Below the pieces are notes generated by a model. That model had not been told where the DNA came from, did no database searches, and saw only the letters and a list, made by a program, of their open reading frames with translations. A stretch of DNA of 64,000 bases from Acidobacteriota bacterium (GTDB taxonomy: Bacteria; Acidobacteriota; Thermoanaerobaculia; Multivoradales; UBA5704), in the NCBI GenBank assembly GCA_040349255.1, contig JBEQUE010000144.1, forward strand, positions 15,524 through 79,523. Reading direction: 5' to 3'. Every line of letters starts with the position of its first letter. Positions within the stretch are counted from its first letter, which is position 1. A program made the translations under genes and the position numbers. Positions 4,675 through 44,443 of the stretch are shown piece after piece.

Positions 4675-4691
4675 GGCGGCGGTCTCGCCTC

Positions 4692-9968: not shown

Positions 9969-10038
9969 TTCTTATCTCTCTCGACAAAAATTGCGCCCGC
10001 AGTCGGGTCTGCGATAACCTGGAACCGCTTCGGCGACG

Positions 10039-11883: not shown

Positions 11884-11916
11884 GCTTGCTCTCCAGCCTC
11901 CCAACACCCCACATCT

Positions 11917-13347: not shown

Positions 13348-14190
13348 GTGAGAAAAAGAGGCGTTCCGGCAATGCTCGTGCTCTCTGCCCTGCTCGGTCT
13401 CTCCCCTCTGGCCGCCGATCCCACGATCCGGCGCGGCATCGACGTCTTCACCACCCGCGCCGACGGAAGGACCTACTACGACTTCGCCAAGCAACCCATT
13501 CCCGCGGGTTTCTTCTGCAACGCCTCCAAGGCCTTCACCGGCCGGGTGCCGCTCAAGGGGCTGCCTCTCGCAACCCAGACGCCGGGAGAGCTCCGGAATG
13601 CCGACACGATCGTCGAGCGTCTCGACGATGCCGTCTTCAACGGTAAGGACGTTGCCGAGACGCGCATCCGATTCCGGGCCTTGTCGCTGGTGAGCATCGC
13701 CCCCATCAAGACGGCCTGCGGCGACTTCCATGTCTACGTCACCCTCAACGGCCCGCAGCGGGCGACGACGATGAGCATCAGCCGCACCCAGCAAGGAGGC
13801 GGGACCTTTTCCGCGCCTCTCGCGGTCGACGCGCGCATGACCTTCATCCCCGTGAAGAAGTCCGTGAAATCCGCGACCGGCAACAGCGCGCAGAAGTGGG
13901 AGCTCACCGGAAGCTTCACCTTCCCTGCCAGCCCCGTCGCGTGGAGCCTGGGAAATGAGGCGATGAAGAGAATCAGCTCCCCGGTCGTCGACACCAATGG
14001 AGACCTGACTCCGGACACGCGGCTTCCCGGCACCTCGAACTTCCTGGCGGGCACGCCGCCCGGCAATGTCATGACTGGCGCGTACGGCAATATCGGGGCC
14101 TGCCCGTGTGAGCCGGTATGCCATGCCACCTCCGGCGAGATGCACTGCTCCTACCCGACAGAAGACTGCTACCCCGTCGTCTGTCCATAA
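13348..14190 (+). CDS. Secreted hypothetical protein with Cys-rich C-terminus
   Basis: N-terminal signal peptide MRKRGVPAMLVLSALLGLSPLAADP. Eight Cys near the C-terminus (ACPCEPVCHATSGEMHCSYPTEDCYPVVCP). Confidence 0.7.
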   Translation: MRKRGVPAMLVLSALLGLSPLAADPTIRRGIDVFTTRADGRTYYDFAKQPIPAGFFCNASKAFTGRVPLKGLPLATQTPGELRNADTIVERLDDAVFNGKDVAETRIRFRALSLVSIAPIKTACGDFHVYVTLNGPQRATTMSISRTQQGGGTFSAPLAVDARMTFIPVKKSVKSATGNSAQKWELTGSFTFPASPVAWSLGNEAMKRISSPVVDTNGDLTPDTRLPGTSNFLAGTPPGNVMTGAYGNIGACPCEPVCHATSGEMHCSYPTEDCYPVVCP

Positions 14191-14287
14191 CTCCGCATTC
14201 CTGCGAAGAGCCTCGAGGCGGCCGGACAGGGCCGCCCGAGGCCTGGCCGGCTTCCCGTCCTGATGAACGCCGCCTTGCTTCGTCGCT

Positions 14288-14851
14288 TTAGAGGAAGATC
14301 TCGCCGAGAGGGATCTCCAGGCCGGGCAGGAGCGGGCTGGTCAGAATGTCGCCATCCGCCGCGGTCAGCTCCGCGCCCCCCTGGAGGCATTCCCCCATCC
14401 TGCGGAAGATCCGGGCCGCGTTCCGCGTCGGATCGACCATCCAGTACTCCTGGACGCCCAGGATCTCATAGCGCTCCAATTTGAGACCCTCGTCCCGTTT
14501 CCGAGTCGACGGCGAGAGCACCTCGATGACGAGGTCCGGCGCTCCCTGGACGTTCATCTCGGTAAGAATCCTCGCTCTCGCCTGGGAGACGAACAGGAGA
14601 TCCGGCTGGACGACGTCATGCTTGCCGAGCAGAACGTCGGCGGGAGCCACAAAGAGACGGCCCAGTCGATGACGGCGGACGAACGGCGCGATCCAGGAAG
14701 TCAGCTCGACGACGATGCTCTGATGCCACAGGTTCGGAGCCGCCGTCACGAAGTGCTCCCCGTCGAGGATCTCGTGACGGTACCCATCCTCCGGGAACAG
14801 GAGGTAGTCCTCGTAGGTGAGCTTGCGACGGACTGGATCTCGAAGGGCCAT
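14288..14851 (-). CDS. Uma2-family (DUF820) PD-(D/E)xK endonuclease-like protein
   Basis: MALRDPVRRKLTYEDYLLFPEDGYRHEILDGE...PDLVIEVLSPST.R.DEGLKLERY. The start is taken at an internal ATG; the track ORF extends upstream. Confidence 0.7.
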   Translation of the reverse strand: MALRDPVRRKLTYEDYLLFPEDGYRHEILDGEHFVTAAPNLWHQSIVVELTSWIAPFVRRHRLGRLFVAPADVLLGKHDVVQPDLLFVSQARARILTEMNVQGAPDLVIEVLSPSTRKRDEGLKLERYEILGVQEYWMVDPTRNAARIFRRMGECLQGGAELTAADGDILTSPLLPGLEIPLGEIFL

Positions 14852-15021
14852 GGCGACTCCCGTTTGCAGAGCCAGGAAGAGTTTAGCACGGGACACAATC
14901 CTCGGGTCGGAAGAAGTTCCGCCGGAGGATATCTCAGGACTCGCCGTCGTGGAACTCGCGACGAGGCTCGACTGCAATCGAGTCCGCGCTCCTCGAATCC
15001 TCGGACACCTTCTCCCGGAAT

Positions 15022-17424
15022 TCACGCTTTCCGGCGGCAGATAATCTTGTCTCCACTCGTTCCCACGTGATCAAAATACTTGGTTATGATCTCATGGCAA
15101 TGTCGACAACTGGGCCTTATGTCCTCGTGAAGTTCTAGGATGAGGGTATCCACTCTAGGAAGCCAGGAGGCGGAGGTCTCGAGGACCTCGACCTCAGAGC
15201 CTTCGATGTCGAGCTTCAGTATGTCGATGAAAGAGATGCCATACTCCTCCATAAGCCCATCGACAGTGACGGCTGGAACGGTTTGCATAACACTCCTACC
15301 ATCTAGATCACCTTCTACGGTCTGGAATCCCCATGCTCCACTTCCACCATCGATAACCTGGACGCAGGCTTTCTTGCACCAGAGCGCCCCTCTCACTGGG
15401 AATATATTTGGGAAAGGCATCGAATTTCGAACCAGGAGTTGAAAGTTGTGTTCCTCGGGTTCGATCGCGATGATTCGGGCATCGGGATATCGCAGGGCAA
15501 AGTCAACCGATGAAGCACCTATGTTGGCTCCCCCGTCAACAATCACTTTTGGAGGATGTCCGACCTCAAGGATATGAGGCTTCTCGCGGAAGATCTCGCG
15601 ATACACATCGAGATCCGTGGTCTCTGGTCGTATGTGCAGAATGTGACTACCTTCCAGGGCAACCCTTATTGTTGCCTCGTCGAGTTCGGTCCCATTGACA
15701 CTCTCTCCAGTCTCGCCAAACGAAAAATAAGAAGTAGCGGCCAGCCCAAGAAGGCGCTGCCCGACAGGCAGCAAAGAATGGATGTCTTCCCACTTATTTT
15801 CCCATAACGAACCTTGAAAGCCGAGTTCTTTCCAGAGGCGCTCGGCAAAATTGGGCATTATTGGCGCAGAGAGGATGGCCAAGAGCTTCGCCGCGAGCAG
15901 TTCTAGCGCGACGGCTGTCCGCCGCCTTTCATTTTGCGCGATAACTCGAAGCCAGCTTTCCTCGGATTTCGCGAAGCGCCTCGCATCGCGAACGAGCCAA
16001 CCGAGGACGCTTGCAGCGCACTGAGGCGAGAACGTCCTCGCCTCGTAGGCTTTGCTCGCCTGGGCAGTTAGCATGGTTAGTCGTTCTGCGAATCGCAAGT
16101 GCTCTTCCGCCCAACTACCAGCCCCAGGCACCCGTTCCTCGAACTCTCTAGCAGCCCGAACCGCCAATTCCCTGAGCCAAGCCTGCCATTCACGGATCAG
16201 TTCCCGGTCCACGTCCGCGGCGAGCTCAGCCAAACTGAAGTTGGTCCTCTCCACCTCGGGATATGTTGTCGCCATGTGAAAGCGTAGGGAGTCTGCGGGC
16301 ACCCTGCTCAGCAGATGCTGTCCCCAGATTGCATGCTGCCGGCTGGTTGAGAACTTGGAATGATCAAGAAGACGGAACTCGTTCATGAGCAGCGCCGAAG
16401 GAAGACGGATTTGCGAGTCAAAAGCCATCAGCAACGCGGGCACCAGAACTGCGTAGTAAAAAGCATTGTCGAATCCGAAACATTGAATAGCAAGGGAATC
16501 CCCATTCTTCCAGAATTGCTCCCAGCGGCCATCGAGATGCTGGGCATAGGTGAGATAGCGCGCGGCTTCGTCGCACCACGTATAGACTGTCTGGCCCTCG
16601 AATCCTGGAATTGCAATCGGCACCCCCCAGTTATCGTAATGAGAAACAGCAAAATTCCAGAAACCAACCTGTAGAGCCTGCTCGCAGAAAGATCTCAGAT
16701 TAGAGCTCATCGCCACCTTGCTCCAATATTCCTGCAGCCTGCCGCTATACTGGTCAAGCGGGAAGTAGAGGCGCTTCATAGCCCTGAAGGACGGAGGAGC
16801 GCCGCACTGGGCGCAGACCGGATCCAGAAGATCTACACAGCGGTTGGGCATACCGCAACTCTCACATCCGCTTCCCGTGGTACGGCTTCCACAATAGGGG
16901 CAGTGTCCAGAGATATAGTTCTCATAAAGCTGGCGACGACACGGTTCACAATAGGTAGTCGGGTCCACGCGGGAAATGAGCAATCCACGGGCATACAGGT
17001 TACCTAGAAAATCTTGTACGGTCGGTACGTAGAAGAGCGATGAATTCGGCCGAATAAACTGGTCGACGTCAATCCGCGCCCCCCTGAGCGTACTCGCTAT
17101 ACTTTCCGCCATTTGGTCTGCAACCTGCTGAGGGGAGACGCCAGCCTCCATTGCATGGATCTTGACGTCACTCTGATTGTCATCTGTACCAGTGAAAAAG
17201 TGAACCTCTGCGCCACGAAGCCGGAGGTAGCGCGACTGAATGTCTCCTGCAAGGTAGGGCCCGGAGAGATGGCCCACATGCAGATCGCCATTCGGGGTTG
17301 GGGGCGCTGCCATGACAAGTACGCGAAGAGAAGCATAGCGCAACGTATCCCGGCAGTCGCTCGCCAGGCCCTCGACCGCTCCATAACTAGAAATTATCTG
17401 CTTCTTCTCCCTGGGTTCTTCCAT
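15022..17424 (-). CDS. Methionyl-tRNA-synthetase-like class I aaRS catalytic domain (HIGH/KMSKS-like, Zn knuckles) fused to a C-terminal FkbM-family methyltransferase domain
   Basis: PPTPNGDLHVGHLSGPYLAGDIQSRYLRLRGAEVHFFTGTDDNQ (MetRS-like HIGH region). CEPC...CPYC...CESCG...CAQCG knuckles. LLDHSKFSTSRQ (KMSKS-like). C-terminus VVDGGANIGASSVDFALRYPDARIIAIEPEEHNFQLL (FkbM MT motif). ATG at 17424 with GGAGAG SD. Low-GC gene. Confidence 0.8.
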   Translation of the reverse strand: MEEPREKKQIISSYGAVEGLASDCRDTLRYASLRVLVMAAPPTPNGDLHVGHLSGPYLAGDIQSRYLRLRGAEVHFFTGTDDNQSDVKIHAMEAGVSPQQVADQMAESIASTLRGARIDVDQFIRPNSSLFYVPTVQDFLGNLYARGLLISRVDPTTYCEPCRRQLYENYISGHCPYCGSRTTGSGCESCGMPNRCVDLLDPVCAQCGAPPSFRAMKRLYFPLDQYSGRLQEYWSKVAMSSNLRSFCEQALQVGFWNFAVSHYDNWGVPIAIPGFEGQTVYTWCDEAARYLTYAQHLDGRWEQFWKNGDSLAIQCFGFDNAFYYAVLVPALLMAFDSQIRLPSALLMNEFRLLDHSKFSTSRQHAIWGQHLLSRVPADSLRFHMATTYPEVERTNFSLAELAADVDRELIREWQAWLRELAVRAAREFEERVPGAGSWAEEHLRFAERLTMLTAQASKAYEARTFSPQCAASVLGWLVRDARRFAKSEESWLRVIAQNERRRTAVALELLAAKLLAILSAPIMPNFAERLWKELGFQGSLWENKWEDIHSLLPVGQRLLGLAATSYFSFGETGESVNGTELDEATIRVALEGSHILHIRPETTDLDVYREIFREKPHILEVGHPPKVIVDGGANIGASSVDFALRYPDARIIAIEPEEHNFQLLVRNSMPFPNIFPVRGALWCKKACVQVIDGGSGAWGFQTVEGDLDGRSVMQTVPAVTVDGLMEEYGISFIDILKLDIEGSEVEVLETSASWLPRVDTLILELHEDIRPSCRHCHEIITKYFDHVGTSGDKIICRRKA

Positions 17425-17454
17425 ACACACTCTCCATGGCTGACTTAAATTAGC
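17425..17454. promoter_or_regulatory. 30-bp divergent intergenic spacer between the aaRS-like/FkbM gene and the CHAT-SIR2-NACHT gene. Promoters must overlap the coding regions.
   Basis: ATG 17424 (minus) and ATG 17455 (plus). Confidence 0.3.
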
Positions 17455-20400
17455 ATGCCTGACTATAACATACCGAAGACCTCGCCGAGAAGAGTCCTCG
17501 TTCTGTCGACAAACCCTGAGGATACCGAAAGGCTAGCACTTGAACGGGAAACCCGTCAAATTGAGCGTGCATTAGCGCATCGCGAAGGAAGTTTCACGGT
17601 GCGACACGCTATGGCTGCTCACCTTGAAGATCTCGAGGACAGCCTATTCGATTTTAAGCCGCAGTACGTTCATTTCTGCGGCCATGGCTTAAAAGGAGGC
17701 CGAGGTCTTGCCTTCCAGGATGACTCGGGAAGGACGAGTCCCGTTACCACGCGGCAGCTTAAGGAGTTGTTCTCTATCTTCAAAACGAACATCAGCTGCG
17801 TATTTCTCAATTGCTGCTTTTCGCGCCCCCAGGCAGAAGTGATTTCCGCTCATGTCCCCTACGTGATTGGAACAAGTGAGGCGTTTGACGATGAGTTGGC
17901 CGTTGTCTTCGCTTCAAAGTTCTACAAGGCGATTGGTCGTGGAAAAACGGTCCCATTTGCGTTCAAGTTCGCCCGCGCTGTTACCGCCGACAATTTGGAT
18001 TCCCTGATTCCGGTCCTAGTCCGAGGGCGGCGCAAAAATAAAACAAACCCTGGAGATAGCGTCGGCTCTTCTGGCACCAGCCAGTGGAAGGCAGGAAATT
18101 TAGGGCAACCCAAGGAGTTCCGCTCGTTCGATTTAGAAGCAAAGGAAGAACAGGCTTCGTTACACCTCAATACCTCGCAAAAAGAACAGGATCAGGATGC
18201 TCGGCGCGCTTCCCTGAGCCGCCTCTGGAATCGATTAGAACAAAAGCGCGAAGCCGTCATTTTTCTGGGTTCTGCTGCCTGCGCGGAGGGCTTCAAGGAG
18301 GGCAAGCCCTACCCCAGCTTGGATGCCATCGCCAAGCGAATTCTCGATGATGAAGGTCGAAGCACTGGCAATATGACCGACGTTCGCAAGGAGCTGAGAA
18401 ATACATTGCGGATGTGGACTGAAGGGGAGGGAGATCTTTCCGATTTTCTCCGAAAATATATTTCAGGGCAGCCCGGCGCTGCCCATCACTATCTTGCAGC
18501 CTTGGCTCTAGGCCTTTTCCCGGAGTTCAATCTCCTTCTGTTTGTAACGGCCGGATTCGATGACTTGATGGAGGAAGCATTCGTCAGTCTGCTAAGAGGT
18601 GAAACCCGACCCAAGATAAGGCATTACAGCATTGGGCATCAAGAAGAAACAGTTCCTAGAATTTTCGAGGAAGTCTCCGGTCAAGTGCGCAAGGGAGTGC
18701 CTGTTATACTCAAACTATTTGGCGATCTGGACGCAGAGAGTCCCCTGCTCTACCCAAAGACCAAAATTCGTCAGAAGCTTGGGAGCAGTATTCAAGGCTG
18801 GTTCAGCCGTCCCGTGCTCTTCATCGATTGCGGGCCCGAGGATAAAGCCTTTGAAGATTTGTTCTTTAAGACAGAAAAGCGTGGCCCCTTGTTTGTTATT
18901 GGTAAGAACCTTGCACAATATCGAAACGATCCTACTATTCATCATGTCGCCATATCGCTCATGGAATTCGGCCTAGAGTTCCTCGATATGGTGAGATCTA
19001 AAAATCAGGACCTTCTTAAGCGGGTAGAAGATCTCCTGCATAATGTAGATCCTCTCGCGCTCTATCCTGATTGTGAATCTATCATGGCACGCGCCGCTAT
19101 CGCCTCTCGCGCTTCGTTACTACGGGTGGAAGAGCGACTGCCGCGTAGCCGTTCCAATGAGGAAGGCCACGCCTTTGTGCCCATCGCTCGAATTGACACG
19201 CAACCTGATTTCGCGGCCTTCTTGCGGGACGGTAGGCCTCTCCTTGCATTAATCGGTGATTCCGGTTCCGGTAAGTCTACTCTCTTCTACCAAGTCCACC
19301 AAGCCGCGGGTGCTTTCATTTCGATCTTTTATGACATCCATCAACTTCAGGCCACGCGCACGCTTGCTGGTAGGCTTGCCCACGACTTCCTCTGTGACGA
19401 ACGCAATTTCGTCGACCTTGTTAGAGTACTCGACAAGGCATTGAAATTTGAGCAGCGAAAGCTTGTCATTTTTATTGATGGACTCAACGAAAGCCTTGAT
19501 CTGAAGCCTTCCACCTTGCGCTTTGAAATCGAGGATCTTGGCGCGAAACTGCCAGGAACAATCAAGATTGCCTATTCGTGCCGCAGAGTCTATTGGGACA
19601 ATTTCATCCGCAATACATCGCCGCTTTCCAAAGAACTATACTTTAATTCAAAAGAAATAGTTCTAGAGCACTTTTCTCCAAGAGAGGCGGAAAGCGCCTT
19701 CAAGTCATACCAGGAACTTTACGGATTCCTCGGTAACTATGCTTCATTGAGCTCCGAATTCAAGTTGAGAATTAAGGACCCGCTGATGTTGCGTATGCTC
19801 GCAGAGGGTTACGCGGGGAAGAAGCTTCCTGATTTCGCGCCTGCAGTGCTGATCTTCGATACTTACCATAAACGTTTCCGGCAGCGCTTCAAAGGCACTG
19901 TTGTACCGGCTTTCCTCGATGCGCTAGTGGCCGCGAAGGTAAATGAGACCGAGGCGGAACTCGCCTCCGATCAGTTCATCACTGAAGATGTGCGAACGCA
20001 CCCGAAACTCAGTCTTCTGATTCAACAGCAGATGTTGAATGCGCATCGGGGTGGGGACCCACTCCTGCTCCTCGAAGATGAAGGGATACTGACAGCTATC
20101 GATGACGATAGCACATCCTATCGATTCGCCTACGACCGGTTTTTTGAATATCTACTCGGAAAATCACTTTCAAAACTTCTGACTACCGGTTCTAGAGAGA
20201 GGTTCCGAGAGCGTCTTGAGAAGCAGATACGTAGATTAAGCCCCTTTCATTTTTCCTTCCTGCAAGCGCTGAAGTCGGAGGTCATTCGTCTCAACATTCT
20301 CGAGCCAAGCGGGCCCTGCTCCTTTTACGACCCTGAACTTGTGAGAGGACTTCTTGAGAACGAGGATGCGGGGATCGTTGCGTTCACGAAGGACCTGTTA

Positions 20401-21909
20401 AGAGAGTTGATGTTCGAGGGGGGGCGGGACCTCACGTCAGTGATAGCGCAGGTCTTTCAGGATGAGACGGCTAATCAGCTCTTGATGCTGGACATAGCCC
20501 CTGATTCGCCGCGCACGCTCCCCTTGGTTGTGAGAGGGTTGATGCAGGGTGCGAGAGAGATCGCTCGTCGCTGCTGCCATATCCTTGTCAACTTCTTATC
20601 CGAGCCGGAATCCCGGCGCCTCATCGAGGATGAACTCTTTCTCGAGCTTCGCAGGCCGCTTCAGGTCGCGACAATAGGTGGAATGATTTACTATTCAGCA
20701 GCCTTGGCCGGAGAAGCCGATCGTAGGGGTGCTGACCCTCTACCGATAATCCTAGATTTCTGGCGCCGAGCATGGGGAGTCGCAGAAAGGGACGAAAGGG
20801 ATGTCGAGGCGCTGGTCGGCGGCCTAGTGAGAATAGTACACACTGAGGCTGGCCGATTCTTCGGTGATGACAGCAGGAACGCTATGGACTACATATGGAC
20901 AGGCATGCCTCGTGAGATCAAGGATGTTTCCCTTCAGATGGTTCCATTTATTGTCGATTCTGACCGAAGGCTCCCCCCTGACATTCAGGAGATTCTCCTC
21001 TTCTTCGGATCGACCATACGCGATTGGTCAACTCGTCGCGATCCTGCTGCCTATGTAGAGAAGGACTATAAAATAGAGTTCACGATGGCACAGTGGATCC
21101 TGGTGCAGAGGGCGAGGCACCAATACAGCGACGTGAAGGAGACTCTTGAAAGCTTCGTCGCCACAGGTTATTCACGAAGCATTGAGGTGGCGCTTAGCAA
21201 TATGGAGTCCTGTTGCCTCCATATGCTCCTGAATGACAAAGCGCTTCTTAATGACGCTTATCAGACCATGCTTAAGTGGATGCCGATTTACCAGAGTGAT
21301 GAGCAAGGATTTTACGGGCACTTGGCCAAGGAGGACCCCTTCTCGCGCAACGAGTGCCCGATAGATATGGTTGGTCGAATTTCTCTCCTGGATGAGTTTT
21401 CTCCCAAGGAGGGGCGAATCCCGTTTCTTGAGCCTTGGTTCACTAGCCTGGACAGGAGAGACCGCCTGTACGCCCTAATCTGCGCCAGGAAATTGTGGCG
21501 TCATCAACCCGTAAAGATGCTCCAAACCCTCGAAGTCGTTTGTAGCTCGGATGACGAAACCGTCGCCTCTTGGCTGGACGTCATACTCAAGGAAATCTAC
21601 ATGGTTCTCCCGCGTCTCGTGGAGGAGTTCTTTCGGCGTACCGGCATGGAGCCGGCCCGAGCCCAAAGAATCAAGACTCGGTCGGACGTGGTGGACCCTA
21701 GCGCTGTTGTCCACCCTGGAGAGCCCCTCTACAAAGCGCTCTTCCTCGGCCCCCGAGAGCGCCGCAAGAAATTAGCTGAATGGTACCTTCATCTTCTTCA
21801 GTCCGACAGCTTAGAGGATTACTGCGACGCCCTTGCACGATGGTTCATTTCGAAGATCCACAACATGGATACGGGGAACCATGGGTTGAGCGCCGACCTT
21901 GATCCTTGA
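17455..21909 (+). CDS. Giant CHAT-like caspase domain, SIR2-like domain, NACHT-type STAND NTPase and long helical-repeat C-terminus protein (1484 aa)
   Basis: N-terminus RVLVLSTNPEDTERL...YVHFCGHG...CVFLNCCFS (His/Cys dyad). SIR2_2-like motifs AVIFLGSAACAEG, LLFVTAGFDDLMEEAF, ILKLFGDLD. Walker A LLALIGDSGSGKSTLF, Walker B KLVIFIDGLNESLD. Low-GC gene. Confidence 0.85.
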   Translation: MPDYNIPKTSPRRVLVLSTNPEDTERLALERETRQIERALAHREGSFTVRHAMAAHLEDLEDSLFDFKPQYVHFCGHGLKGGRGLAFQDDSGRTSPVTTRQLKELFSIFKTNISCVFLNCCFSRPQAEVISAHVPYVIGTSEAFDDELAVVFASKFYKAIGRGKTVPFAFKFARAVTADNLDSLIPVLVRGRRKNKTNPGDSVGSSGTSQWKAGNLGQPKEFRSFDLEAKEEQASLHLNTSQKEQDQDARRASLSRLWNRLEQKREAVIFLGSAACAEGFKEGKPYPSLDAIAKRILDDEGRSTGNMTDVRKELRNTLRMWTEGEGDLSDFLRKYISGQPGAAHHYLAALALGLFPEFNLLLFVTAGFDDLMEEAFVSLLRGETRPKIRHYSIGHQEETVPRIFEEVSGQVRKGVPVILKLFGDLDAESPLLYPKTKIRQKLGSSIQGWFSRPVLFIDCGPEDKAFEDLFFKTEKRGPLFVIGKNLAQYRNDPTIHHVAISLMEFGLEFLDMVRSKNQDLLKRVEDLLHNVDPLALYPDCESIMARAAIASRASLLRVEERLPRSRSNEEGHAFVPIARIDTQPDFAAFLRDGRPLLALIGDSGSGKSTLFYQVHQAAGAFISIFYDIHQLQATRTLAGRLAHDFLCDERNFVDLVRVLDKALKFEQRKLVIFIDGLNESLDLKPSTLRFEIEDLGAKLPGTIKIAYSCRRVYWDNFIRNTSPLSKELYFNSKEIVLEHFSPREAESAFKSYQELYGFLGNYASLSSEFKLRIKDPLMLRMLAEGYAGKKLPDFAPAVLIFDTYHKRFRQRFKGTVVPAFLDALVAAKVNETEAELASDQFITEDVRTHPKLSLLIQQQMLNAHRGGDPLLLLEDEGILTAIDDDSTSYRFAYDRFFEYLLGKSLSKLLTTGSRERFRERLEKQIRRLSPFHFSFLQALKSEVIRLNILEPSGPCSFYDPELVRGLLENEDAGIVAFTKDLLRELMFEGGRDLTSVIAQVFQDETANQLLMLDIAPDSPRTLPLVVRGLMQGAREIARRCCHILVNFLSEPESRRLIEDELFLELRRPLQVATIGGMIYYSAALAGEADRRGADPLPIILDFWRRAWGVAERDERDVEALVGGLVRIVHTEAGRFFGDDSRNAMDYIWTGMPREIKDVSLQMVPFIVDSDRRLPPDIQEILLFFGSTIRDWSTRRDPAAYVEKDYKIEFTMAQWILVQRARHQYSDVKETLESFVATGYSRSIEVALSNMESCCLHMLLNDKALLNDAYQTMLKWMPIYQSDEQGFYGHLAKEDPFSRNECPIDMVGRISLLDEFSPKEGRIPFLEPWFTSLDRRDRLYALICARKLWRHQPVKMLQTLEVVCSSDDETVASWLDVILKEIYMVLPRLVEEFFRRTGMEPARAQRIKTRSDVVDPSAVVHPGEPLYKALFLGPRERRKKLAEWYLHLLQSDSLEDYCDALARWFISKIHNMDTGNHGLSADLDP

Positions 21910-22144
21910 GTATCCGCCATCTTTCAATAGCCGAGGCATTGCTACTCCCGCCGAGGTGATAAACCAAGCTGACCGCTTCACTGCATGTTGCCCTGACTCC
22001 AGCTGCCCGAATGGCCAGATTCCACAGATCATCATAGCTAGCATTAGCCATAAGGTCGTAGAATCCATACAGTTCAATCGGTCGGTCGTGCGTGACAACC
22101 ACGAAGGAAATCAGGAACTTCGATCTCATCGGGTTGGCCTCTCG

Positions 22145-22867
22145 TCAACTGTGTAATGCGCGAGGGGCTTTGACTAGATGTTTGTGGTCGTTTTCGCCAG
22201 GGCCAAAGTATTCCCGGTTGTTGCAGCGGCGGCATATCTCTGAAGCCTCCTGCCTTTTGCCTTCTTGGAGCAGGTTACGGAGGTGGACGAATCGCGGGGA
22301 AAACCAAATCTCCTCAAGAGTCTGAACCGATATATTTCCCATGACATGGCTTCGCTCGGCGTCGTCACAGCAGAGCAGGACATCCCCGCCAACTGTAATT
22401 ATCAACATGTCAGTCGGAGCATAACATGGCAAGAACAGTGGCTCCTCCGTTGTACCCAGGAGCCCACCTCGATTCACAAGAACAAGATCCGAGGGGAACT
22501 GGATCGTCTGATAGGGCCTTTCCGGCATCGGCTCATAATCATGGCGTGTCACAATGAAGTGATCTATGCCGGCCTCCCTTAGGGAGGTGTAACGCTCATC
22601 AAGGAGAAGGTCTCCGTTGGTGAATAAAACCTGAAATGCATTTGGAAGACGGGCGGCCGCCTTCCTTACCAAAGTTTCCAGATCGCGACGCAAGAGCGGC
22701 TCATTGAACAAGTGATACGATAGGTTCCCTTGGAAATTGACCCGCTCCAACTCGGAAACAATACGATCGAACAACGATTCGCTCATAAAGAGATCGGTCT
22801 TGGGCGCGGGTAATACCGACACGGGGCAATAGCTGCACCGGCGATTGCACCGAGCATTGACCTCCAT
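22145..22867 (-). CDS. Small radical SAM enzyme with SPASM/twitch-like C-terminal Cys cluster (BtrN-like size)
   Basis: CNRRCSYCP (CxxxCxxC) near the N-terminus. C-terminal LLCCDD...CRRCNN. The start is taken at an internal Met (MEVNARCNRRC), which leaves a 5-nt gap after the DegT stop; the track ORF extends to 22966. Confidence 0.7.
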   Translation of the reverse strand: MEVNARCNRRCSYCPVSVLPAPKTDLFMSESLFDRIVSELERVNFQGNLSYHLFNEPLLRRDLETLVRKAAARLPNAFQVLFTNGDLLLDERYTSLREAGIDHFIVTRHDYEPMPERPYQTIQFPSDLVLVNRGGLLGTTEEPLFLPCYAPTDMLIITVGGDVLLCCDDAERSHVMGNISVQTLEEIWFSPRFVHLRNLLQEGKRQEASEICRRCNNREYFGPGENDHKHLVKAPRALHS

Positions 22868-22872
22868 TTCGA

Positions 22873-24225
22873 CTACGCTGAACCAACTTCCCTGGGGCTC
22901 GACAGGTTGTCCTCTAAACACGAGTTTGCCTCCGACGGCACGCTGGCGTTTTCCAATTGGTGCCAATAGTGCATGACCTTTTCTACAGCCCTGACGATAT
23001 CTTCAATCTCCGCGAGGCCCCCAAGAAGTGCATTGTGGGGGATGGCGATATAGCGACGGCGGGCCGCAACTGCCGTTGGTAGGTGGAAACGGGAAGGTTC
23101 GAAAGGGCTCGGCCCAGTCGCCTGATGGCGCCGCGGAGATCTCATGGGATTGAACAGTTGATTCTGGTTCAATGGATCATAGAGAGGCTGAATCGTCAAG
23201 CCTAACTCCGCCGTCAATGCGGCGGCAACGGTCTCTATGGGCACGCAGCCGAACCGCTCAAGTTGAAACTCCAGGCAGTAGCGGTAGAAGGTAGGCCGTC
23301 CCGCCGCCTCGGGTTTGTGGAGGGGGCGGACTCCCGATATCTCGCGGAGCCGCGAAGTCAGATGTGACGCGTTCTCTGTCCGAATGGCGTTCTCCTCGTC
23401 TAGAAATCGTAGACGATCGTGGAGAATGGCCGCATGGAACTCTGAAAGGCAATGGTTGTGTCCCTGGACATCTCCTGCGGGTTCAAGCTCCAGGCCTCTC
23501 GGTATTCGGCGCGCTACGTAGCGTCGGCCATCGGCCCGGAACTGCTGCAAGAGGCTGTACAGATTGGCATCCTTGGTAATCACGGCTCCGCCTTCGCCGC
23601 TGGCCAGGACTTTGCTCTGTTGCATGCTGAACACACCTGCAGCGCCGAAGGTTCCTACCTTTCTACCCTGCCAAGAAGCACCATGAGCATGCGAACAATC
23701 CTCGATCAATGGGATTCCGGTCGTGCTCGACAACTCTTGGAATGACGCGAGGTCGGCAACTGTGCAGTAGAGATGGACCAGCATAATAGCCGCCGTCGCT
23801 CTGGTAATTGCGTTCCGTGCCGCGTTAACGGACATACAGAGCGTATCAGGATCAACGTCGACCAGTATGGGGATACCTCCCAAGCGCGCTACAGAGGAGC
23901 CGCAGGCAACCCAAGTGAGGCCAGGAACGAGAACCTCCCGTCCCGGACCGATACCGAGGGCTTCGAGCGCGATTGTAAGGGCTGACGAACCGTTGGCTGT
24001 CGGAACACAGTAGGGCACTTCGTGGAAGGCGGCGAACGACTCTGCGAATTGTCGTTCGAAGGGAAGATCCTCCAAGCATGGCCCGCTGATCGTCCAGCGC
24101 TGCGAGCGAAGAACTTTCAAGAGAGCTTCTTCCGTGGATTGCTCCGCGCGCGGCCAGTTAGGCCAGGAAAGGCTTCTGACAGGAATTCCGCCGAGGATCG
24201 CCAAGAGAGACGAGGAAGCAGTCAT
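22873..24225 (-). CDS. DegT/DnrJ/EryC1/StrS-family PLP-dependent aminotransferase
   Basis: FSMQQSKVLASGEGGAVIT (PLP-Lys motif). The family also contains scyllo-inosose aminotransferases. ATGA overlap with the upstream gene. Confidence 0.85.
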   Translation of the reverse strand: MTASSSLLAILGGIPVRSLSWPNWPRAEQSTEEALLKVLRSQRWTISGPCLEDLPFERQFAESFAAFHEVPYCVPTANGSSALTIALEALGIGPGREVLVPGLTWVACGSSVARLGGIPILVDVDPDTLCMSVNAARNAITRATAAIMLVHLYCTVADLASFQELSSTTGIPLIEDCSHAHGASWQGRKVGTFGAAGVFSMQQSKVLASGEGGAVITKDANLYSLLQQFRADGRRYVARRIPRGLELEPAGDVQGHNHCLSEFHAAILHDRLRFLDEENAIRTENASHLTSRLREISGVRPLHKPEAAGRPTFYRYCLEFQLERFGCVPIETVAAALTAELGLTIQPLYDPLNQNQLFNPMRSPRRHQATGPSPFEPSRFHLPTAVAARRRYIAIPHNALLGGLAEIEDIVRAVEKVMHYWHQLENASVPSEANSCLEDNLSSPREVGSA

Positions 24226-25379
24226 CGTTGCAGTGTCAAGAATTCAATAAGTTTTCGGAACTGCTCTGGCACGGAGTGCTCACAGGAGGCTCCTTCGCCG
24301 ACAATAGGATCCTTGAAAAAATATGAAGCGGCATCCAATGAGCCGTGACAACCCGCTTCCGCAGCGTAGGCGACCACTCGTACAAGATCAATTATTGCAG
24401 GCGCTGCCAGAATTGAGTCCTGTCCTAGCCAATTGATCTTCAATTGCATTGGGACACCCAGGAAGCCGCGAAAATCAATGTTGTCCCACGCTTCCTTGGA
24501 GTCACCGCGCGGGGGATAATAATGGATATGGACTTGATGACCCGTCCCGTGCGCGCCTCCGGGCACATAGCCGAGGATGGAGCTCAGGCATTTGCTCTTC
24601 GAGATGATCTTCGTCTCACCGGCTCCAGGCTTGGACAAGGAGAGACCATCGTCATTACCGAGCAGGTTTGTACTGAACCACCCATCGATCCGAAGGTTCT
24701 TGTCCCTGAATGCCGGCGCGAGAGTAGTCTTGATGAAGGTCTGACCGGTTTTGCCATCGCGGCCAGCATAGATTAAACCCTTCTCTTCGGCGAGTTCCCG
24801 CAGGGGAGTAATTTCGGCCGGGTTCGGAGTGAAGTTAATAAAATGGGCTCGCGCCTCAATAGCGAGACGGAAGTAGATTTGGCTAACCGAATACGAGGCA
24901 CCCAACTCCAATTCATCGAGATTCCTCCAATCGATCCGCTCGTCAGCGTCCTGCTTGGGCACGGGCTCCGTCGGGCAAAGATTGACCAGTATCACGTGTC
25001 GCCAATCTTCTCTCCGCCGCTTCCTGTTCAGGTGGGCCGCTTCCCGTCGGATCCAATCGCCTATTGATTCTCTTTGGAGCTCAATTCCCTTTCTTGGCTT
25101 GATCCTTTGCAGGCGTTGCTTCGCCTTCGAGAGTACCTCCGGGGGGCATATGCGGTGTCGCTTACAGGAAGCGTACAAAGTGTCCTGATTCATGTCCCAG
25201 CCATGGATGGACATGGAGGAGAATGGCAAAAGCCGGCAACCGGATGCACGCACCAGAGGCGACTCCGTCGCCACGCCGAAACCGGCAATTTCTTCAGGTG
25301 GCATCGAAAGCCCAGCTGCCAACGTGCTACCGACCGCCCCTGCCAGTCCAGCAACCATGATAAGAGCTGGTTCTGCCAT
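24222..25379 (-). CDS. myo-Inositol-1-phosphate synthase (Ino1/MIPS) family protein
   Basis: IMVAGLAGAVGSTL (Rossmann), FINFTPNP, GRDGKTGQT, STNLLGNDDG (matches the MIPS SYNHLGNNDG motif). First gene of the MIPS-DegT-rSAM operon. Confidence 0.75.
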   Translation of the reverse strand: MAEPALIMVAGLAGAVGSTLAAGLSMPPEEIAGFGVATESPLVRASGCRLLPFSSMSIHGWDMNQDTLYASCKRHRICPPEVLSKAKQRLQRIKPRKGIELQRESIGDWIRREAAHLNRKRRREDWRHVILVNLCPTEPVPKQDADERIDWRNLDELELGASYSVSQIYFRLAIEARAHFINFTPNPAEITPLRELAEEKGLIYAGRDGKTGQTFIKTTLAPAFRDKNLRIDGWFSTNLLGNDDGLSLSKPGAGETKIISKSKCLSSILGYVPGGAHGTGHQVHIHYYPPRGDSKEAWDNIDFRGFLGVPMQLKINWLGQDSILAAPAIIDLVRVVAYAAEAGCHGSLDAASYFFKDPIVGEGASCEHSVPEQFRKLIEFLTLQR

Positions 25380-25650
25380 TCAGTTCTCCATACAGATTTC
25401 GGAAGAAGCAGATAATTTCTAGTTATCCGCTATCTCGAAGGTCCACTAGTAGAATATTCCTGCTGGGCGTTCAGTGATTATAGTGCCATTGTAAGTGTAT
25501 TCTGGCGATAGTCAACACATAATCCTTGTTCCGAACAAATATAAATCTTCGCGCTATAGCAACCGGCTGATCCCGTCGCATCGCATTATTTGTACCTTCC
25601 CTAGTAACCGCGTGTTCCTCAAGCGTGCCTGCGAACTTAGTTGTGACTGT
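25380..25650 (-). promoter_or_regulatory. AT-rich upstream/promoter region of the MIPS-DegT-rSAM operon and boundary of the low-GC island
   Basis: AT-rich non-coding stretch immediately 5' of the ATG at 25379. GC rises sharply after ~25650. Confidence 0.3.
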
Positions 25651-26018
25651 TGCTGATATGCGCACCTTGGACTATCTGCCGTGACGATCCGCTGGATGTG
25701 TCCGCGTTCCAGTTGAACGGTTCCGGGACTCCTGTTTCGTCGTATACGCACCGCCAACACCGGAACGTCTTCGATCATCTCGGCCTGGAAGACCGACCGC
25801 CGGCAACAGAACCGGGGAGGTCACCTGCACAAAGAGGTCCCCGGCGCACGCCCAGCGCCGGACCGCCCCCTCCCCGGCAGGCGGGCCTCTTCGGAACGGC
25901 GGCGGCCTTGGACCCGGCAGCCGCCGCTCCTCCTGGTTGTCAATGAACCTCGCTTCGCTCGGGGGCCGGCGAGGACGCCGGCGGTCCCAGCGAGCCCCCG
26001 CCCTCCCTCTTTCCTTCG

Positions 26019-26468
26019 CTAACCGGCCGCCGCAGCGACCTGCCGCCTCCGCCTGGCCTGGATGCCGAAGTCCTCCAGCTTGTCTGCGGCCGGTCCGTAG
26101 TGATGTTTCAGCGAGAACCGCAGGACCGTCGCCAGCCTCTGGCAGTCGGCCAACAGCGTCGCCAACTGCTTCGTCGCTTCCTGCTTGAGCGACGACAGGG
26201 CGGCCTGGGCCTGGATCAGCTCCTCCATATGGTTCAGCAGTTCCTCGAACTGGACCCGCTGGGCCTCCAGGTACGACAGCTCCGGGCGGTTCTCCTGCAT
26301 TCCGGTCAACAGGCGATGCCACTCCCTCAACTGCGCCGACCGGGTCCGGTCCGACGAGGGCTCCGTCCGGGCGGGAACGGCCGGGAGCTCCTCGGCCGGG
26401 CGCTCTCCGACGCCGTCCAACAGCTCCTGCACGTCTCGCAGGAGGTCCGTATACGTGCTTTCGGGCAT
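26019..26468 (-). CDS. Hypothetical protein, tandem paralog A
   Basis: 149 aa. Shares QRLATVLRFSLKHHYGP..KLEDFGIQ with the next gene. Confidence 0.6.
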   Translation of the reverse strand: MPESTYTDLLRDVQELLDGVGERPAEELPAVPARTEPSSDRTRSAQLREWHRLLTGMQENRPELSYLEAQRVQFEELLNHMEELIQAQAALSSLKQEATKQLATLLADCQRLATVLRFSLKHHYGPAADKLEDFGIQARRRRQVAAAAG

Positions 26469-26534
26469 GATCTCTCTCCTTGAAAAAAGGTGAGGGGGCT
26501 CGAACGGCCCGCCCCCTCGCCAAGTCAGAGGACG

Positions 26535-26927
26535 CTAATCAACCGACGGAACGGCAGTTTCGACCAGGGCGACCGACTCCGCCGGCGGCGGCGGCAGCTC
26601 GGGCTTCCTCGCACGGCTGCGGAAGGGCTGGATGCCGAACTCCACCAGCTTCTCCGACCTCGGGCCGTAGAGCTGCTTCAGCGAGACGCGCAGTACCGTC
26701 GCCAGGCGCTGGCACTCCATCGTCACGTCTTCCACCTGCTGCGTCGCCTTCTGCCTGCTCGCCGTCAGCGCGGCCTGGTTCTGGAACAGGTCCTCCGCCT
26801 GGGCCACCAGCGCCACGAGCTGCGTGCGCTGCGTTTCCAGGTGCGGAAAGTCCGCCAGGTTCACCTGCAGCGCCGCCAACAGCCGCTGCCACGCCCCCAA
26901 CTTCCCCGATCTCGTCGTCTCTCCCAT
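26535..26927 (-). CDS. Hypothetical protein, tandem paralog B
   Basis: 130 aa. QRLATVLRVSLKQLYGPRSEKLVEFGIQP. Confidence 0.6.
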   Translation of the reverse strand: MGETTRSGKLGAWQRLLAALQVNLADFPHLETQRTQLVALVAQAEDLFQNQAALTASRQKATQQVEDVTMECQRLATVLRVSLKQLYGPRSEKLVEFGIQPFRSRARKPELPPPPAESVALVETAVPSVD

Positions 26928-27365
26928 GGTCCTTCTCCTTTCCGAGCCTCGTGGCTCCTGAAAATCCGGCTCCTCCCCAGAGCCGGAATCCTTCTCCTTT
27001 CGCCTTCGAGGAGAGTCTACGAGGGATATTTACGAACTGTCTATGAATTTTTTGATGCCAACTGTGACCAAAAAGTCGGTGTCACCGACTTTTTGGTGCG
27101 AAGCACCGGATGGGGACGAAAAACTCCAACAAAGCCCCAAGACTCTTGGGGGATCAGGGGGCGAGGCGCTCGACCGCGGCGTCGGCGTGCACCTCGGCTG
27201 TCCTTGAGGGTAGGCACGGGGCGGTCCGTATCGATAGAATCCGGAGCGGTCCACAGGCTCGCGAAGAGGTTCCAAATCTGGCTCAGGGACGACGTCGGGC
27301 TTTGACGGGCGAGCACCGGGTTTACGGCCTACATAGTGCGGCAGGACGACTCAAGGAGGCATGGC

Positions 27366-28187
27366 ATGGCGCGGGGTCTAACGCGGGCGCAGCTCAAGGT
27401 GCGGATGCTTCGGGCGCTCTCCGGCCAGTCCCAGAAGGAATTCGAGCAGGCCACGAAGGTGGCCAACGTCACCGGGATGGAGAACGGCCAGCGCCACCCC
27501 ACCGCGGCCCAGATCGCCCTGATGTGTGAGAGCCTGGGCATCAGCACGGACGACTGCGAGACGCTGCTCCAGGACTACGAGGCGCGCGTCGCCCGGCATC
27601 AGGCGGCGAAGGCCGGCTCGGGCTCGGCCGGGCCGGAGCCGCCGCTGGTAATGCCGGCGAACGCTCAGGGTACCCAGGGCATTGCGTCCATCCTGGAGGA
27701 GGCCGAGGCGCGGCTCGGACGGGCCGGCGAGGAGCGCGCCGCCACCCGCGCCGCCGAGCGCGAGCAGGCGAAAGGACCGTGGGAGCGCCTGCGCAGGCTC
27801 GAGAGCTTCGACGAGATGGTGCTGGTGGCGCGGTCGTCCAAGGAGCTTCAGACCTGGGCCGTGGTCGAGCTGATCTGCGACGAGAGCGCGCGGATGGCGT
27901 CAGCCGGCGACCGCGAGTCCGCCGGGCGCGCCCGTAATCTCGCGGAGCTCGCGGTGGAGGTCGCCGGACGCATCCGGGCCACGGACGCCTGGCGCACCCG
28001 CGTCCGCGGCTTTGCCATGGCGCATCTCGCGAATGCCCTCCATGCCTCTGGCGAGGGCGACCTGGCCCGCGAGACCATGGAAGAGGCCGAGCGCCTCTGG
28101 GAAGCCGGCCAGGACCCCGAGCAGATCCTCGATCCCGGCCGCTTCCACGACCTCGTCGGCTCGATCAGCTTCTCGGACGCGACCTGA
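27366..28187 (+). CDS. XRE-family helix-turn-helix transcriptional regulator with ~200-aa C-terminal domain
   Basis: LSGQSQKEFEQATKVANVTGMENGQRHPTAAQIALMCESLGIS (HTH_3-like). Confidence 0.7.
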   Translation: MARGLTRAQLKVRMLRALSGQSQKEFEQATKVANVTGMENGQRHPTAAQIALMCESLGISTDDCETLLQDYEARVARHQAAKAGSGSAGPEPPLVMPANAQGTQGIASILEEAEARLGRAGEERAATRAAEREQAKGPWERLRRLESFDEMVLVARSSKELQTWAVVELICDESARMASAGDRESAGRARNLAELAVEVAGRIRATDAWRTRVRGFAMAHLANALHASGEGDLARETMEEAERLWEAGQDPEQILDPGRFHDLVGSISFSDAT

Positions 28188-28450
28188 CCTCATCCTTCGC
28201 GGCTTGACCTCATCCTTCGCGACTCTGGCTTATCCGCCGCGAAAAAGCCTTATCCGTCGCGAAGTCGGCTCATCCGTCTCAAAACAGCCTTATCCACGGC
28301 AGGACAAGGGTTTTCCGCCGTGGATGAGACCGTTTCGCGGCGGATACGGTTTTTCCGCGGTCGATAAGCCTGTCGCGGCCCGGATAGGCCGTTTCGCCGC
28401 GGATAAGGCGAAGCCGCGGCGGATAAGGCGGAATCGCCTTGGATAAGGCG
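28185..28450. repeat. Phased array of 13 x 20-bp units: 6 direct copies (consensus CTTATCCGYCGCGAA) followed by 7 inverted copies (TTCGCGGCGGATAAG), forming a ~265-bp imperfect palindrome centred ~28308
   Basis: ATCC cores at 28192, 28212, 28232, 28252, 28272, 28292. GGAT cores at 28322, 28342, (28362 variant CGAT), 28382, 28401, 28421, 28441. Spacing is exactly 20 bp. Confidence 0.85.
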
Positions 28451-28503
28451 TGCCCCCGCAGGTGCCAGATCACCACGTCCGAGTCCAGGAGGAAATCAGC
28501 CAT
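28279..28503 (-). pseudogene. Remnant of a PIN-domain (VapC-like) toxin gene: only the N-terminal MADFLLDSDVVIWHLRG motif remains, then it reads into the repeat array
   Basis: ATG 2 nt after the RHH gene stop, as in vapBC pairs. The PIN body is replaced by repeats. Confidence 0.45.
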
Positions 28504-28750
28504 GATCCGGATCGCCGGGAAGGCGCCGGCTGTCCCAGGCCCGCCGCGCTTCCCGGATCGCACGCGAGGGCTCCTCCCGGCCTTCGTTGCTCCACGCACC
28601 CGCAGCGTCCCTGGCCGCCTTGAGCTGCCTCAGCTGCGCCAGCCGTTCCCGAACCGCCTCTTCGATGAACTCACTCCTCTGCCGGACCGGCACGAGCTCG
28701 CGCATCTCCTTGAGCAGAGAATCCTTGAAAACGACGTTCATGCGTGCCAT
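28496..28750 (-). CDS. Ribbon-helix-helix (CopG/VapB-like) DNA-binding protein. It could alternatively be a ParR/ParG-like centromere binder.
   Basis: MARMNVVFKDSLLKEMRELVPVRQRSEFIEEAVRERLAQL (RHH pattern). Confidence 0.65.
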   Translation of the reverse strand: MARMNVVFKDSLLKEMRELVPVRQRSEFIEEAVRERLAQLRQLKAARDAAGAWSNEGREEPSRAIREARRAWDSRRLPGDPDHG

Positions 28751-28805: not shown

Positions 28806-29865
<1,060 letters not shown>

Positions 29866-29876
<11 letters not shown>

Positions 29877-44253: not shown

Positions 44254-44443
44254 TGCTGCTATTCGAGCCGTTGAAATGGTGCGCACCATCCGTGAGGCGC
44301 ACTACGAACAGCTCAAGGAGCTGTCTCCGCAGGAGAAAATCGCGTTCTTCCGGGAAAAGGCAAGACGGCTGCACGCCGAGTTGGGAAAGCCCGAAGAGCT
44401 TCTGGCCCGCGCCAGCCAGGGAGCTGAGGCTCACTTCGGATAG
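44246..44443 (+). CDS. Hypothetical small protein
   Basis: 65-aa ORF overlapping the previous gene by 8 nt. Confidence 0.35.
   Translation: MSDAAIRAVEMVRTIREAHYEQLKELSPQEKIAFFREKARRLHAELGKPEELLARASQGAEAHFG

Follow-up and report, generated by a model that had tools for sequence, protein, structure and literature searches.

A 64,000-nucleotide stretch of an Acidobacteriota contig (JBEQUE010000144.1; this whole stretch is called the window below) holds, at positions 28188-28448, an array of thirteen 20-bp units, six direct and then seven inverted, arranged tail to tail immediately downstream of a gene (27366..28187, + strand) for a 273-residue protein that combines an XRE-type helix-turn-helix (HTH) with a predicted tetratricopeptide repeat (TPR)-like domain. 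We refer to this gene, the candidate array binder, as F0-short. The array is a real and conserved feature, and its linkage to F0-short homologues was exclusive in the related loci that we compared. We consider it likely, with a probability of roughly 0.6, that the array is a set of cis-acting, helically phased, cooperative binding sites for the XRE-HTH/TPR protein encoded immediately upstream. A preliminary description of the same DNA had proposed a helically phased array of the cooperatively bound type, as in iterons, centromeres and operator arrays, and this general idea of a phased protein-binding array holds; its narrower reading as a partition (par) site that is served by a neighbouring ribbon-helix-helix (RHH) gene and stands where a vapC gene should be does not.

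The 20-bp lattice extends over 260 bp. Its left arm (28188..28307, + strand) contains the six direct units, each with the head CCTTATCC on the gene side and the tail GCGAAA on the side of a dyad axis at approximately 28308, and its right arm (28309..28448, - strand) contains the seven inverted units. In the sequence itself, ATCC starts at 28192, 28212, 28232, 28252, 28272 and 28292, and GGAT at 28322, 28342, 28382, 28401, 28421 and 28441; CGAT replaces GGAT in register at 28362, and with this one substitution the 20-bp register of the ATCC/GGAT cores is as first described. A weight matrix refined on nine distinct loci (see below) placed the left-arm units at 28188, 28208, 28228, 28248, 28268 and 28288, with scores from 9.5 to 21.9 bits and every spacing equal to 20 bp, and the right-arm windows (- strand) at 28312, 28332, 28352, 28372, 28391, 28411 and 28431, with spacings of 20, 20, 20, 19, 20 and 20 bp. 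Self-identity at a lag of 20 bp, computed over 100 bp, reached 0.70 at the array, the top value of all lags from 9 to 44 across the 64 kb; the maximum was 0.56 in block shuffles (n = 40), and identity at the same lag in the rest of the window had a mean of 0.27 and a maximum of 0.46. Tandem Repeats Finder (TRF) and repeat finding recovered the 20-bp families together with inverted arms of 56-69 nt and 71-75% complementarity.

The two innermost units, TTATCCACGGC and GCCGTGGAT, are the best conserved pair. They are joined by their tails and the lattice continues through the dyad, which leaves no room for the separate centre of about 27 bp that had been proposed. The first two direct units (CCTCATCCTTCGCG) are poorer matches than the remaining ones, and a degenerate unit 0 (GCTTCTCGGACGCGACCTGA, 28168..28187, + strand), matching its neighbour at 12 of 20 positions, is formed by the last codons and the stop codon of the HTH-TPR gene; the stop codon therefore falls on the lattice. 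In L001, L005 and L022, too, the homologous position is scored as a unit. Because a period of 20 bp is not a multiple of 3, and because the lattice contains a 1-bp slip, the array is non-coding. Its units abut without spacers and are present in both orientations, so it is not a CRISPR array, as had been recognized at the outset. The motif is also essentially confined to this site: ten matrix matches of at least 13 bits fall in the array and two elsewhere in the 64 kb, where about one is expected by chance, and the matrix scan did not find the motif in the flanks of any related locus. The array is thus not a copy of a widespread interspersed repeat, a possibility raised in the preliminary description.

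Conservation was assessed in metagenomic loci that encode homologues of the protein. Phased 20-bp units begin at the homologue's stop codon in all 12 loci that extend beyond it (L001-L008, L022, L023, L025 and L036; proteins 49-87% identical), of which L036 offers only the first 125 bp after the gene. Loci with enough DNA contain three to six direct units followed by 6 to 12 or more inverted ones, the right arm of the relatives comprising 6 to 12 units that score with the matrix and more by eye. Nine distinct loci yielded 118 units with the consensus CCTTATCCACCGCAAAAC. The spacing between neighbours of the same orientation was exactly 20 bp in 84 of 98 cases and 39-41 bp in ten, a degenerate unit being skipped in the latter, and in seven of the nine loci the innermost anchors were 37 bp (window, L004, L005, L022, L025) or 36 bp (L001, L003) apart. 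Within the unit T6 is invariant (118/118) and C13 (0.93), C7 (0.90), A15 (0.83) and G12 (0.79) are strongly preferred; the other positions vary. Each asymmetric unit therefore carries two constrained blocks, TTATCC and GCAA. L001 and L003 encode identical proteins but differ in unit number (9 vs 10), and adjacent units are near-identical in L004, a pattern that shows turnover of units under selection for the core.

The core changes where the helix-3 region of the HTH changes. Lineages with the helix-3 sequence QV(E/D)NIAG(M/I)E(N/S)G-xRHPT retain the TTATCC core; L006 and L007 (protein P0018, MEKG-THHPT) have TTNTCAG or TTCTAC, and L036 (protein P0037, GVEGVAAFENG-TRSPR) has TTCGCCAC units. 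It is suggestive that the array core appears in this way to drift with the recognition helix. Phased arrays with motifs unrelated to that of the window were also found beside distant members of the protein family. In L024, 21-bp phased units follow a 514-aa HTH-TPR relative, and in L032 at least 17 units of 21 bp lie near a 486-aa relative. In L034 (3.62-3.64 Mb of an 8.38-Mb contig) about 40 units of 21 bp, GCCCGGACGAyyyGGGCrGyT, with up to 98% self-identity, occupy 10454-11000 and 12335-12590; this array is split by an IS3-family transposase gene and stands between a gene of the F1 family and a 419-aa relative of F0-long (both families are described below), after which comes a tyrosine integrase.

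The contigs of P0038 and P0037, the most divergent two among the homologues, stop 63 and 125 bp past the gene. Homologue contigs in general (L035, L036, L037 and many short ones) often end about 60-125 bp after the gene, which suggests that metagenome assemblies break at the array and that the element is consequently under-represented in short-read assemblies. A DNA scan of GTDB genomes for three GGATAAGG motifs at 20-bp spacing returned 13 unrelated perfect tandem repeats and no complete-genome position for the array family. An unrelated arrangement of similar appearance was seen in a Streptosporangiaceae metagenome-assembled genome (MAG; L020, 1620-1790), where two direct TTATCCCTGG units, a 40-bp gap and four inverted GGATAAGG units at 20-bp spacing lie between the ends of a major facilitator superfamily transporter gene and a 299-aa regulator-like gene.

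The F0-short protein (P0001) is 100% identical over its full length to MES1243480.1, from an Acidobacteriota MAG (locus prefix ABUT39). Its sole family match was Pfam HTH_3, below the curated cut-off, at residues 23-73 of the longer open reading frame (ORF) that starts at 27336 (283 aa). In an AlphaFold2 (AF2) model built with 30 homologues, with a predicted local distance difference test score (pLDDT) of 88.6, residues 7-56 form an XRE-type HTH and a helix continues to residue 84; a disordered linker then leads to a 38-residue helix (106-143), and three TPR-like helix pairs (148-271) complete the chain. The best fold matches in the PDB were PlcR, Rap proteins and generic TPR domains, those to RNPP-type regulators being weak (E 0.07). 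Besides the protein itself, a collection of 5.8 billion proteins held 37 close homologues (43-83% identity), all environmental. A profile search of 1.84 billion cluster representatives returned 1231 relatives at E ≤ 0.001, 756 of them at E ≤ 1e-10, with lengths that peak near 250-280 and 480-500 aa; the short form and its longer paralogue thus belong to a sizeable, uncharacterised HTH-TPR family. Searches with all proteins of the conserved gene cluster against PHROGs, NCBIfam, PADLOC and PDB sequences gave generic HTH matches only, tblastn searches of PLSDB plasmids, GenBank phages and IMG/VR with the HTH protein gave no relatives, and IMG/VR scans that used the HTH alignment, F1, F0-long or the central palindrome as query gave none either. 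Exact-match look-ups of proteins from the window returned no record. The MAG that encodes MES1243480.1 also encodes, on a 99.9-kb contig, a second F0-short paralogue (P0030 = MES1242032.1, 51% identical), and one of its 71-kb contigs bears a third F1 copy, so that at least two such modules per genome are possible.

Gene context was compared by clustering the called genes of the window and the related loci. The conserved cluster has the order F1 (-), F7 (-), F2 (-), F0-long (+), F8 (-), F0-short (+), array, in which F1 is a small helical protein present in one or two copies, F7 a short HTH protein, F2 a protein of about 116 aa, F0-long a 487-aa HTH-TPR paralogue, F8 a protein of about 70 aa and F0-short a protein of 257-274 aa. 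The window keeps only two copies of F1, F0-short and the array, the left part of the cluster having been partly deleted. Its F1 paralogues (149 and 130 aa; 26019..26927, - strand) occupy the same relative position as in L001, L004, L006 and L008; F1 has 110 homologues, several of them named Thermoanaerobaculia by their source, and matches no Pfam family. To the right of the array the genes vary by locus: ccdA with a 148-aa gene, vapBC, a methyltransferase, a higBA-like pair, or directly an iron-uptake operon. In several loci the chromosomal operon resumes farther right as F3-F6 with ApbE, an ABC-transporter ATPase with a DtxR C-terminal fusion, FtsX and FTR1. F0-short is thus the only element that constantly adjoins the array. 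The preliminary description had mentioned the HTH gene as a mere neighbour; it was right about the adjacency and understated the role, since this gene is the constant partner of the array. F0-short reads straight into the array with no terminator in between. A consensus scan placed a promoter-like site, TAGGCA-18-TAGAAT, upstream of the HTH gene (27211..27240, + strand), and the matrix scan found no array-type unit near it.

Three observations favour the F0-short protein as the reader of the array: the strict linkage that persists down to about 50% protein identity while the other surroundings change, the change of the core where the helix-3 region changes, and the phased arrays that adjoin distant members of the family. 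Its modelled architecture points the same way, as an HTH, a long helix and a TPR domain would join DNA binding to protein binding as they do in the RNPP regulators. We propose that one HTH would read each unit through TTATCC, and that the GCAA block would be touched by an arm of the protein, a second subunit or a paralogue. The long helix and the TPR domain may join neighbouring protomers two helical turns apart, giving cooperative occupancy. With a 20-bp period, successive protomers would nearly share a face of the helix; if a turn takes 10.5 bp, each unit would be offset by about -34 degrees, and ten or eleven units would complete one left-handed turn. A phased A-tract in each unit may add bending or favour wrapping. 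The expected outcome would be two polar protein arrays of opposite polarity that meet at the conserved palindromic pair and form a large nucleoprotein complex. On this reading the gene and its array are inherited together as a single module, probably chromosomal, in a Thermoanaerobaculia-like lineage. The cellular role is the step of which we are least sure: our leading guess is a high-capacity platform for assembly and sequestration of the regulator, with a structural or insulating effect on the surrounding accessory DNA.

Several points weigh against binding by F0-short as we propose it. The co-variation of core and recognition helix comes from two variant lineages only, one of them a 125-bp fragment. 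No array lies downstream of the gene in L026-L028, whose proteins are about 30% identical, so that the gene-array association, as judged from these loci, is confined to particular branches and does not extend to the whole family. The cluster has two or three further HTH proteins (F0-long, F7), which might replace F0-short as binder or join it; the window lacks F0-long and F7 yet retains the array. A constrained footprint of 15 bp is long for one HTH, and the second block may need another contact or another protein. Other 20-21-bp tandem arrays exist in these genomes (window 46900-47200; L034), and the 20-bp period may partly reflect a tendency of the lineage to form such repeats. Finally, function as an ordinary operator is unlikely, because the array lies 3' of the gene and has no constant relation to a promoter.

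To our knowledge, the well-studied phased site arrays, namely plasmid centromeres, iteron origins and some phage switches, all have one of three partners: a nucleoside triphosphatase (NTPase), an initiator or a promoter. In the present case DNA of that architecture goes with an uncharacterised HTH-TPR family in an apparently chromosomal setting, and the usual partners were not found. If the protein polymerises on the array, the pair would offer a compact model, easy to reconstitute, of how filaments assemble on DNA cooperatively and with a direction, and a candidate chromosome-organising element in a barely studied phylum. The closest parallels in layout are sopB-sopC of F and parB-parS of P1, where the gene of an HTH binder is followed by its own site array, a dedicated platform rather than a promoter operator. 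As there, the binder gene is directly followed by repeats; the present locus differs in that no ParA/SopA ATPase was found, in that the protein has an XRE-HTH plus TPR architecture and not the ParB fold, in having 20-bp units in two opposed blocks as against 43-bp direct repeats, and in its probably chromosomal context with no plasmid relatives found. In coliphage 186 (the CI wheel) and in lambda, an XRE-type HTH repressor with C-terminal oligomerisation occupies several operators about two turns apart and wraps or loops the DNA; these are few palindromic dimer operators that overlap promoters, whereas the array, which stands in no relation to a promoter, consists of many asymmetric units in two polar blocks. 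Its unit core TATCCACCGC is similar to the lambda half-site TATCACCGC, a likeness that serves as a lead rather than as a test.

The order of domains, an N-terminal XRE-type HTH and then TPR, is that of the RNPP proteins (PlcR, Rap, NprR, Rgg) and of phage AimR according to the AF2 model and the weak structural matches. The F0-short protein nevertheless matched no sequence family beyond HTH_3 in Pfam, NCBIfam, PHROGs, PADLOC or PDB sequences, and RNPP proteins bind one palindromic promoter box, in contrast to an asymmetric array of 13 to 17 units, and belong to a different phylum. No gene for an RNPP-type peptide was identified, no systematic search for one having been made. In P1 repA-incA an array lies downstream of the binder gene, in both orientations, and can titrate or pair the protein. 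The likeness to this and other iteron loci (R6K, RK2, Vibrio chromosome 2) lies in sites of 17-22 bp about two helical turns apart, a spacing that the 20-bp lattice shares. The adjacent gene differs, as it encodes no Rep initiator of the winged-helix RepA, pi or RctB type but, by Pfam, AF2 and fold search, HTH_3 plus TPR; neither an AT-rich unwinding element nor evidence of a replicon was found. The concepts of iterons and of handcuffing are found in two articles (PMC3401445, PMC5397158). RHH centromere-binding proteins serve plasmid partition, and ParR of pSK41 forms a superhelical complex on its centromere repeats (PMC3074162). The RHH centromeres (pSK41/R1 ParR-parC, TP228 ParG-parH) resemble the array in their short repeats, bound cooperatively into a higher-order complex in those systems (PMC3074162) and perhaps in ours. 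They differ in their binder, which is RHH where the candidate here is HTH-TPR, and in their position in the upstream promoter rather than downstream; no ParM or ParA was found here, and the local RHH protein is VapB.

Among the alternatives, one extends the proposed binding to a larger function. The array could be a hitherto undescribed chromosomal organising site of Thermoanaerobaculia, on which two opposed polar filaments form on DNA without an NTPase. Such a site might serve as a centromere or an anchor; it might also block, in an orientation-dependent manner, replication forks, transcription or loop extruders of the structural maintenance of chromosomes (SMC) type. If real, it could explain why accessory and defence DNA gathers around the array. 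The genes to the right of the array point toward it, and by analogy with rtp and TerI/II a replication fork trap may be imagined; we keep this idea only as part of the organising-site proposal, which we regard as tentative and, on balance, unlikely.

The accessory DNA on both sides of the array, with toxin-antitoxin genes, a 12-kb low-GC defence island and a Wadjet system, could instead mean that the array marks one end of an integrative mobile element, or its recombination site, where the repeats would serve a recombinase or its accessory protein. L006 has a tyrosine integrase about 6 kb to the left, another lies beside the related module of L034, and a deletion endpoint falls at the array edge in the window. 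We nevertheless found no integrase or transposase within 6-8 kb in L001, L004, L005 and L008, and neither the window nor the loci showed a second matching end. Known att sites and transposon ends do not look like thirteen to seventeen sites, in both orientations, gathered at a single end. The right-hand neighbours F3-F6 and ApbE recur in L001, L002, L004 and L006, loci whose proteins are 60-80% identical to those of the window, which suggests vertical inheritance. A mobile-element end is thus quite improbable.

The missing terminator between the HTH-TPR gene and the array raises the question of whether the array acts as RNA, either as a long hairpin in the 3' untranslated region (a terminator, a stabiliser or an RNase III target) or as a repeat RNA that sequesters a protein. 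The predicted fold of the transcript is strong (-140.6 kcal/mol, z -7.7; z -13.7 in L022), and GGA-containing motifs recur every 20 nt in the right arm. A strong fold is, however, automatic for inverted arrays. The arms are unequal (3-6 vs 6-12 scoring units), and where the register is clean the complementarity of mirror units hardly differs from that of off-register units (14.6 vs 14.2 in L022, 11.6 vs 11.1 in L005). Constraint falls on fixed unit positions at the DNA-helical period and not on pairing, and no Rfam match was obtained. There is in our view little chance that the array works as RNA. A CsrB-like protein-sequestering RNA was set aside, as L006 has lost GGA and the two arms would pair with each other.

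Slippage-prone DNA without function, tolerated at the end of a gene, would account for the variable copy number between near-identical loci and for adjacent units that are identical; other 20-21-bp arrays, including one that an IS3 element interrupts, are present in these genomes, and the GTDB scan for three phased GGATAAGG motifs gave only unrelated perfect tandem repeats. Such a neutral minisatellite would not be expected to keep its position, lattice, inversion point and T6 (118/118) down to about 50% protein identity while spacer positions diverge, and two arms with a fixed dyad are not an outcome of slippage. Bases, dyad and start at the stop codon all stay fixed despite deep divergence, which indicates selection, and we give neutral DNA only a slim chance.

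A resemblance to DnaA boxes required separate consideration, as the array might be a cluster of such boxes at a chromosomal origin, a datA-like titration site or a DARS-like site. The DnaA box has the consensus TTATCCACA, and the family consensus TTATCCACC agrees with it at 8 of 9 positions; L004 has one perfect box, several boxes with one mismatch occur in L004 and L022, and the cumulative GC skew has a local minimum at 27-28 kb. Only one of the 13 units of the window lies within one mismatch of the box, however, and DnaA boxes are conserved across bacteria, in contrast to a core that drifts (TTNTCAG in L006 and TTCGCCAC in L036, with no box in the units seen). There is no AT-rich element, no dnaA or dnaN was found in the 64 kb and no DnaA family among the precomputed matches of the related loci, and one MAG encodes two paralogous binders. 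Within the window the skew tracks gene orientation (an excess of C at third positions on coding strands) with no persistent switch, and genes to the right point toward the array, the opposite of what an origin would predict. Function through DnaA is thus highly improbable. A replication origin was dropped as a candidate, because the skew follows gene orientation, one unit is box-like, the core drifts and there is neither an AT-rich element nor dnaA.

The RHH gene on the right, taken in the preliminary description for a ParR/ParG-type partner, is indeed adjacent, at 48 bp from the array. It is a vapB antitoxin gene (84 aa; 28496..28750, - strand), 86% identical to the RHH protein encoded before an intact PIN gene in L002, and a consensus scan assigned it a promoter-like TTGACA-16-TACATT at 28804-28777. 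The array does not stand in the place of vapC, as had been thought: the first 19 codons of this PIN toxin gene remain (28447..28503, - strand), ending at the array edge. The remnant, MADFLLDSDVVIWHLRGHA, is identical at 18 of 19 residues to the N-terminus of the intact 128-aa PIN protein of L002, and its ATG overlaps the vapB stop codon, as is usual for toxin-antitoxin operons; an RHH antitoxin that overlaps the start of a PIN toxin identifies the pair as VapBC, though vapC is truncated after codon 19. In L001-L003 the RHH gene lies beyond ccdA and the 148-aa gene, and it is absent within the fetched flanks of L004, L005, L006 and L008. From the array to the matching point of vapC, L002 contains a repetitive extragenic palindromic (REP)-like element, ccdA and the 148-aa gene, about 1.5 kb in total. 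Judged by this comparison, a deletion of roughly 1.5 kb ending at the array edge brought vapB and the vapC remnant beside the array; it took most of vapC and may also have shortened the right arm. An RHH gene with a seemingly missing vapC had thus mimicked a par locus and was in fact a deletion scar, which calls for caution in annotation.

The REP-like element is GC-rich and palindromic (CTCACCCCC..CCCCTCTCCC ... GGGAGAGGGG) and was observed 3' of the array in L001 (7090-7210), L004 (7116-7190), L008 (9160-9230) and L022 (1515-1560). It is nearly identical in L004 and L008 despite far more diverged HTH proteins, and its absence from the window is explained by the deletion.

The least probable alternative is that the array is a centromere of plasmid type (parC/parH), or an iteron origin, with the adjacent RHH protein as its binder. 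It has in its favour short phased repeats with a period of two helical turns, as in centromeres and iterons, and the close RHH gene, but is already largely refuted. That gene is a vapB placed there with its vapC remnant by a deletion and is unlinked to the array in other loci. Neither the ORFs scanned in the window nor the precomputed Pfam matches of L001-L008 include a ParA, ParM, TubZ or Rep family. The contig carries housekeeping genes (citrate synthase, aconitase and Fur), on a replicon that is itself not closed and might be a megaplasmid; the HTH protein has no PLSDB match, and no plasmid, phage or IMG/VR relatives were found. The array and its surroundings, both in the window and in L001-L008, contain no AT-rich unwinding region, the local GC fraction being about 0.67.

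Other features of the window deserve mention. The contig encodes FTR1 in addition to citrate synthase, aconitase and Fur, and the gene at 28806-29876 (- strand) encodes a fusion of an ABC-transporter ATPase with the domain through which DtxR-type iron repressors bind metal and dimerise; it forms an operon with FtsX permeases near FTR1/FtrD and Fur, and is kept in L004 and L006. Two islands of low GC content (50-60% vs about 70%), at about 14000-26000 and at 4300-10000, are rich in defence-type genes, including CHAT-SIR2, Mrr-CHAT-NACHT, a 1484-aa CHAT/SIR2/AAA protein, a WD40 protein and Uma2. They also encode a MetRS-like-FkbM methyltransferase fusion, followed by a radical SAM/SPASM protein, a DegT aminotransferase and a myo-inositol-1-phosphate synthase.

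A complete operon of the Wadjet/JetABCD type occupies 47871-55732 (- strand), with DUF2397 at 54236-55732, DUF2398 at 53115-54239, a 1342-aa SbcC/SMC-like protein at 49094-53122 and DUF3323 plus DUF2399 at 47871-49547. Beside jetD, and directly 3' of the gene for a 207-aa membrane-anchored protein (47217-47840, - strand), a looser second array of about 13 intergenic units of 21 bp was found at 46900-47200; its units read roughly GCGGATCCTCGGCCAGGATTG, several have the palindromic core GCCGAyGATCGGC, and its composition is like that of the L034 array. Finally, the proteins encoded at 10552-11907 and 44431-46032 (both - strand) have an N-terminal extracellular contractile injection system (eCIS) core domain (PF13699), and the second also has a weak anthrax lethal-factor-like C-terminus.

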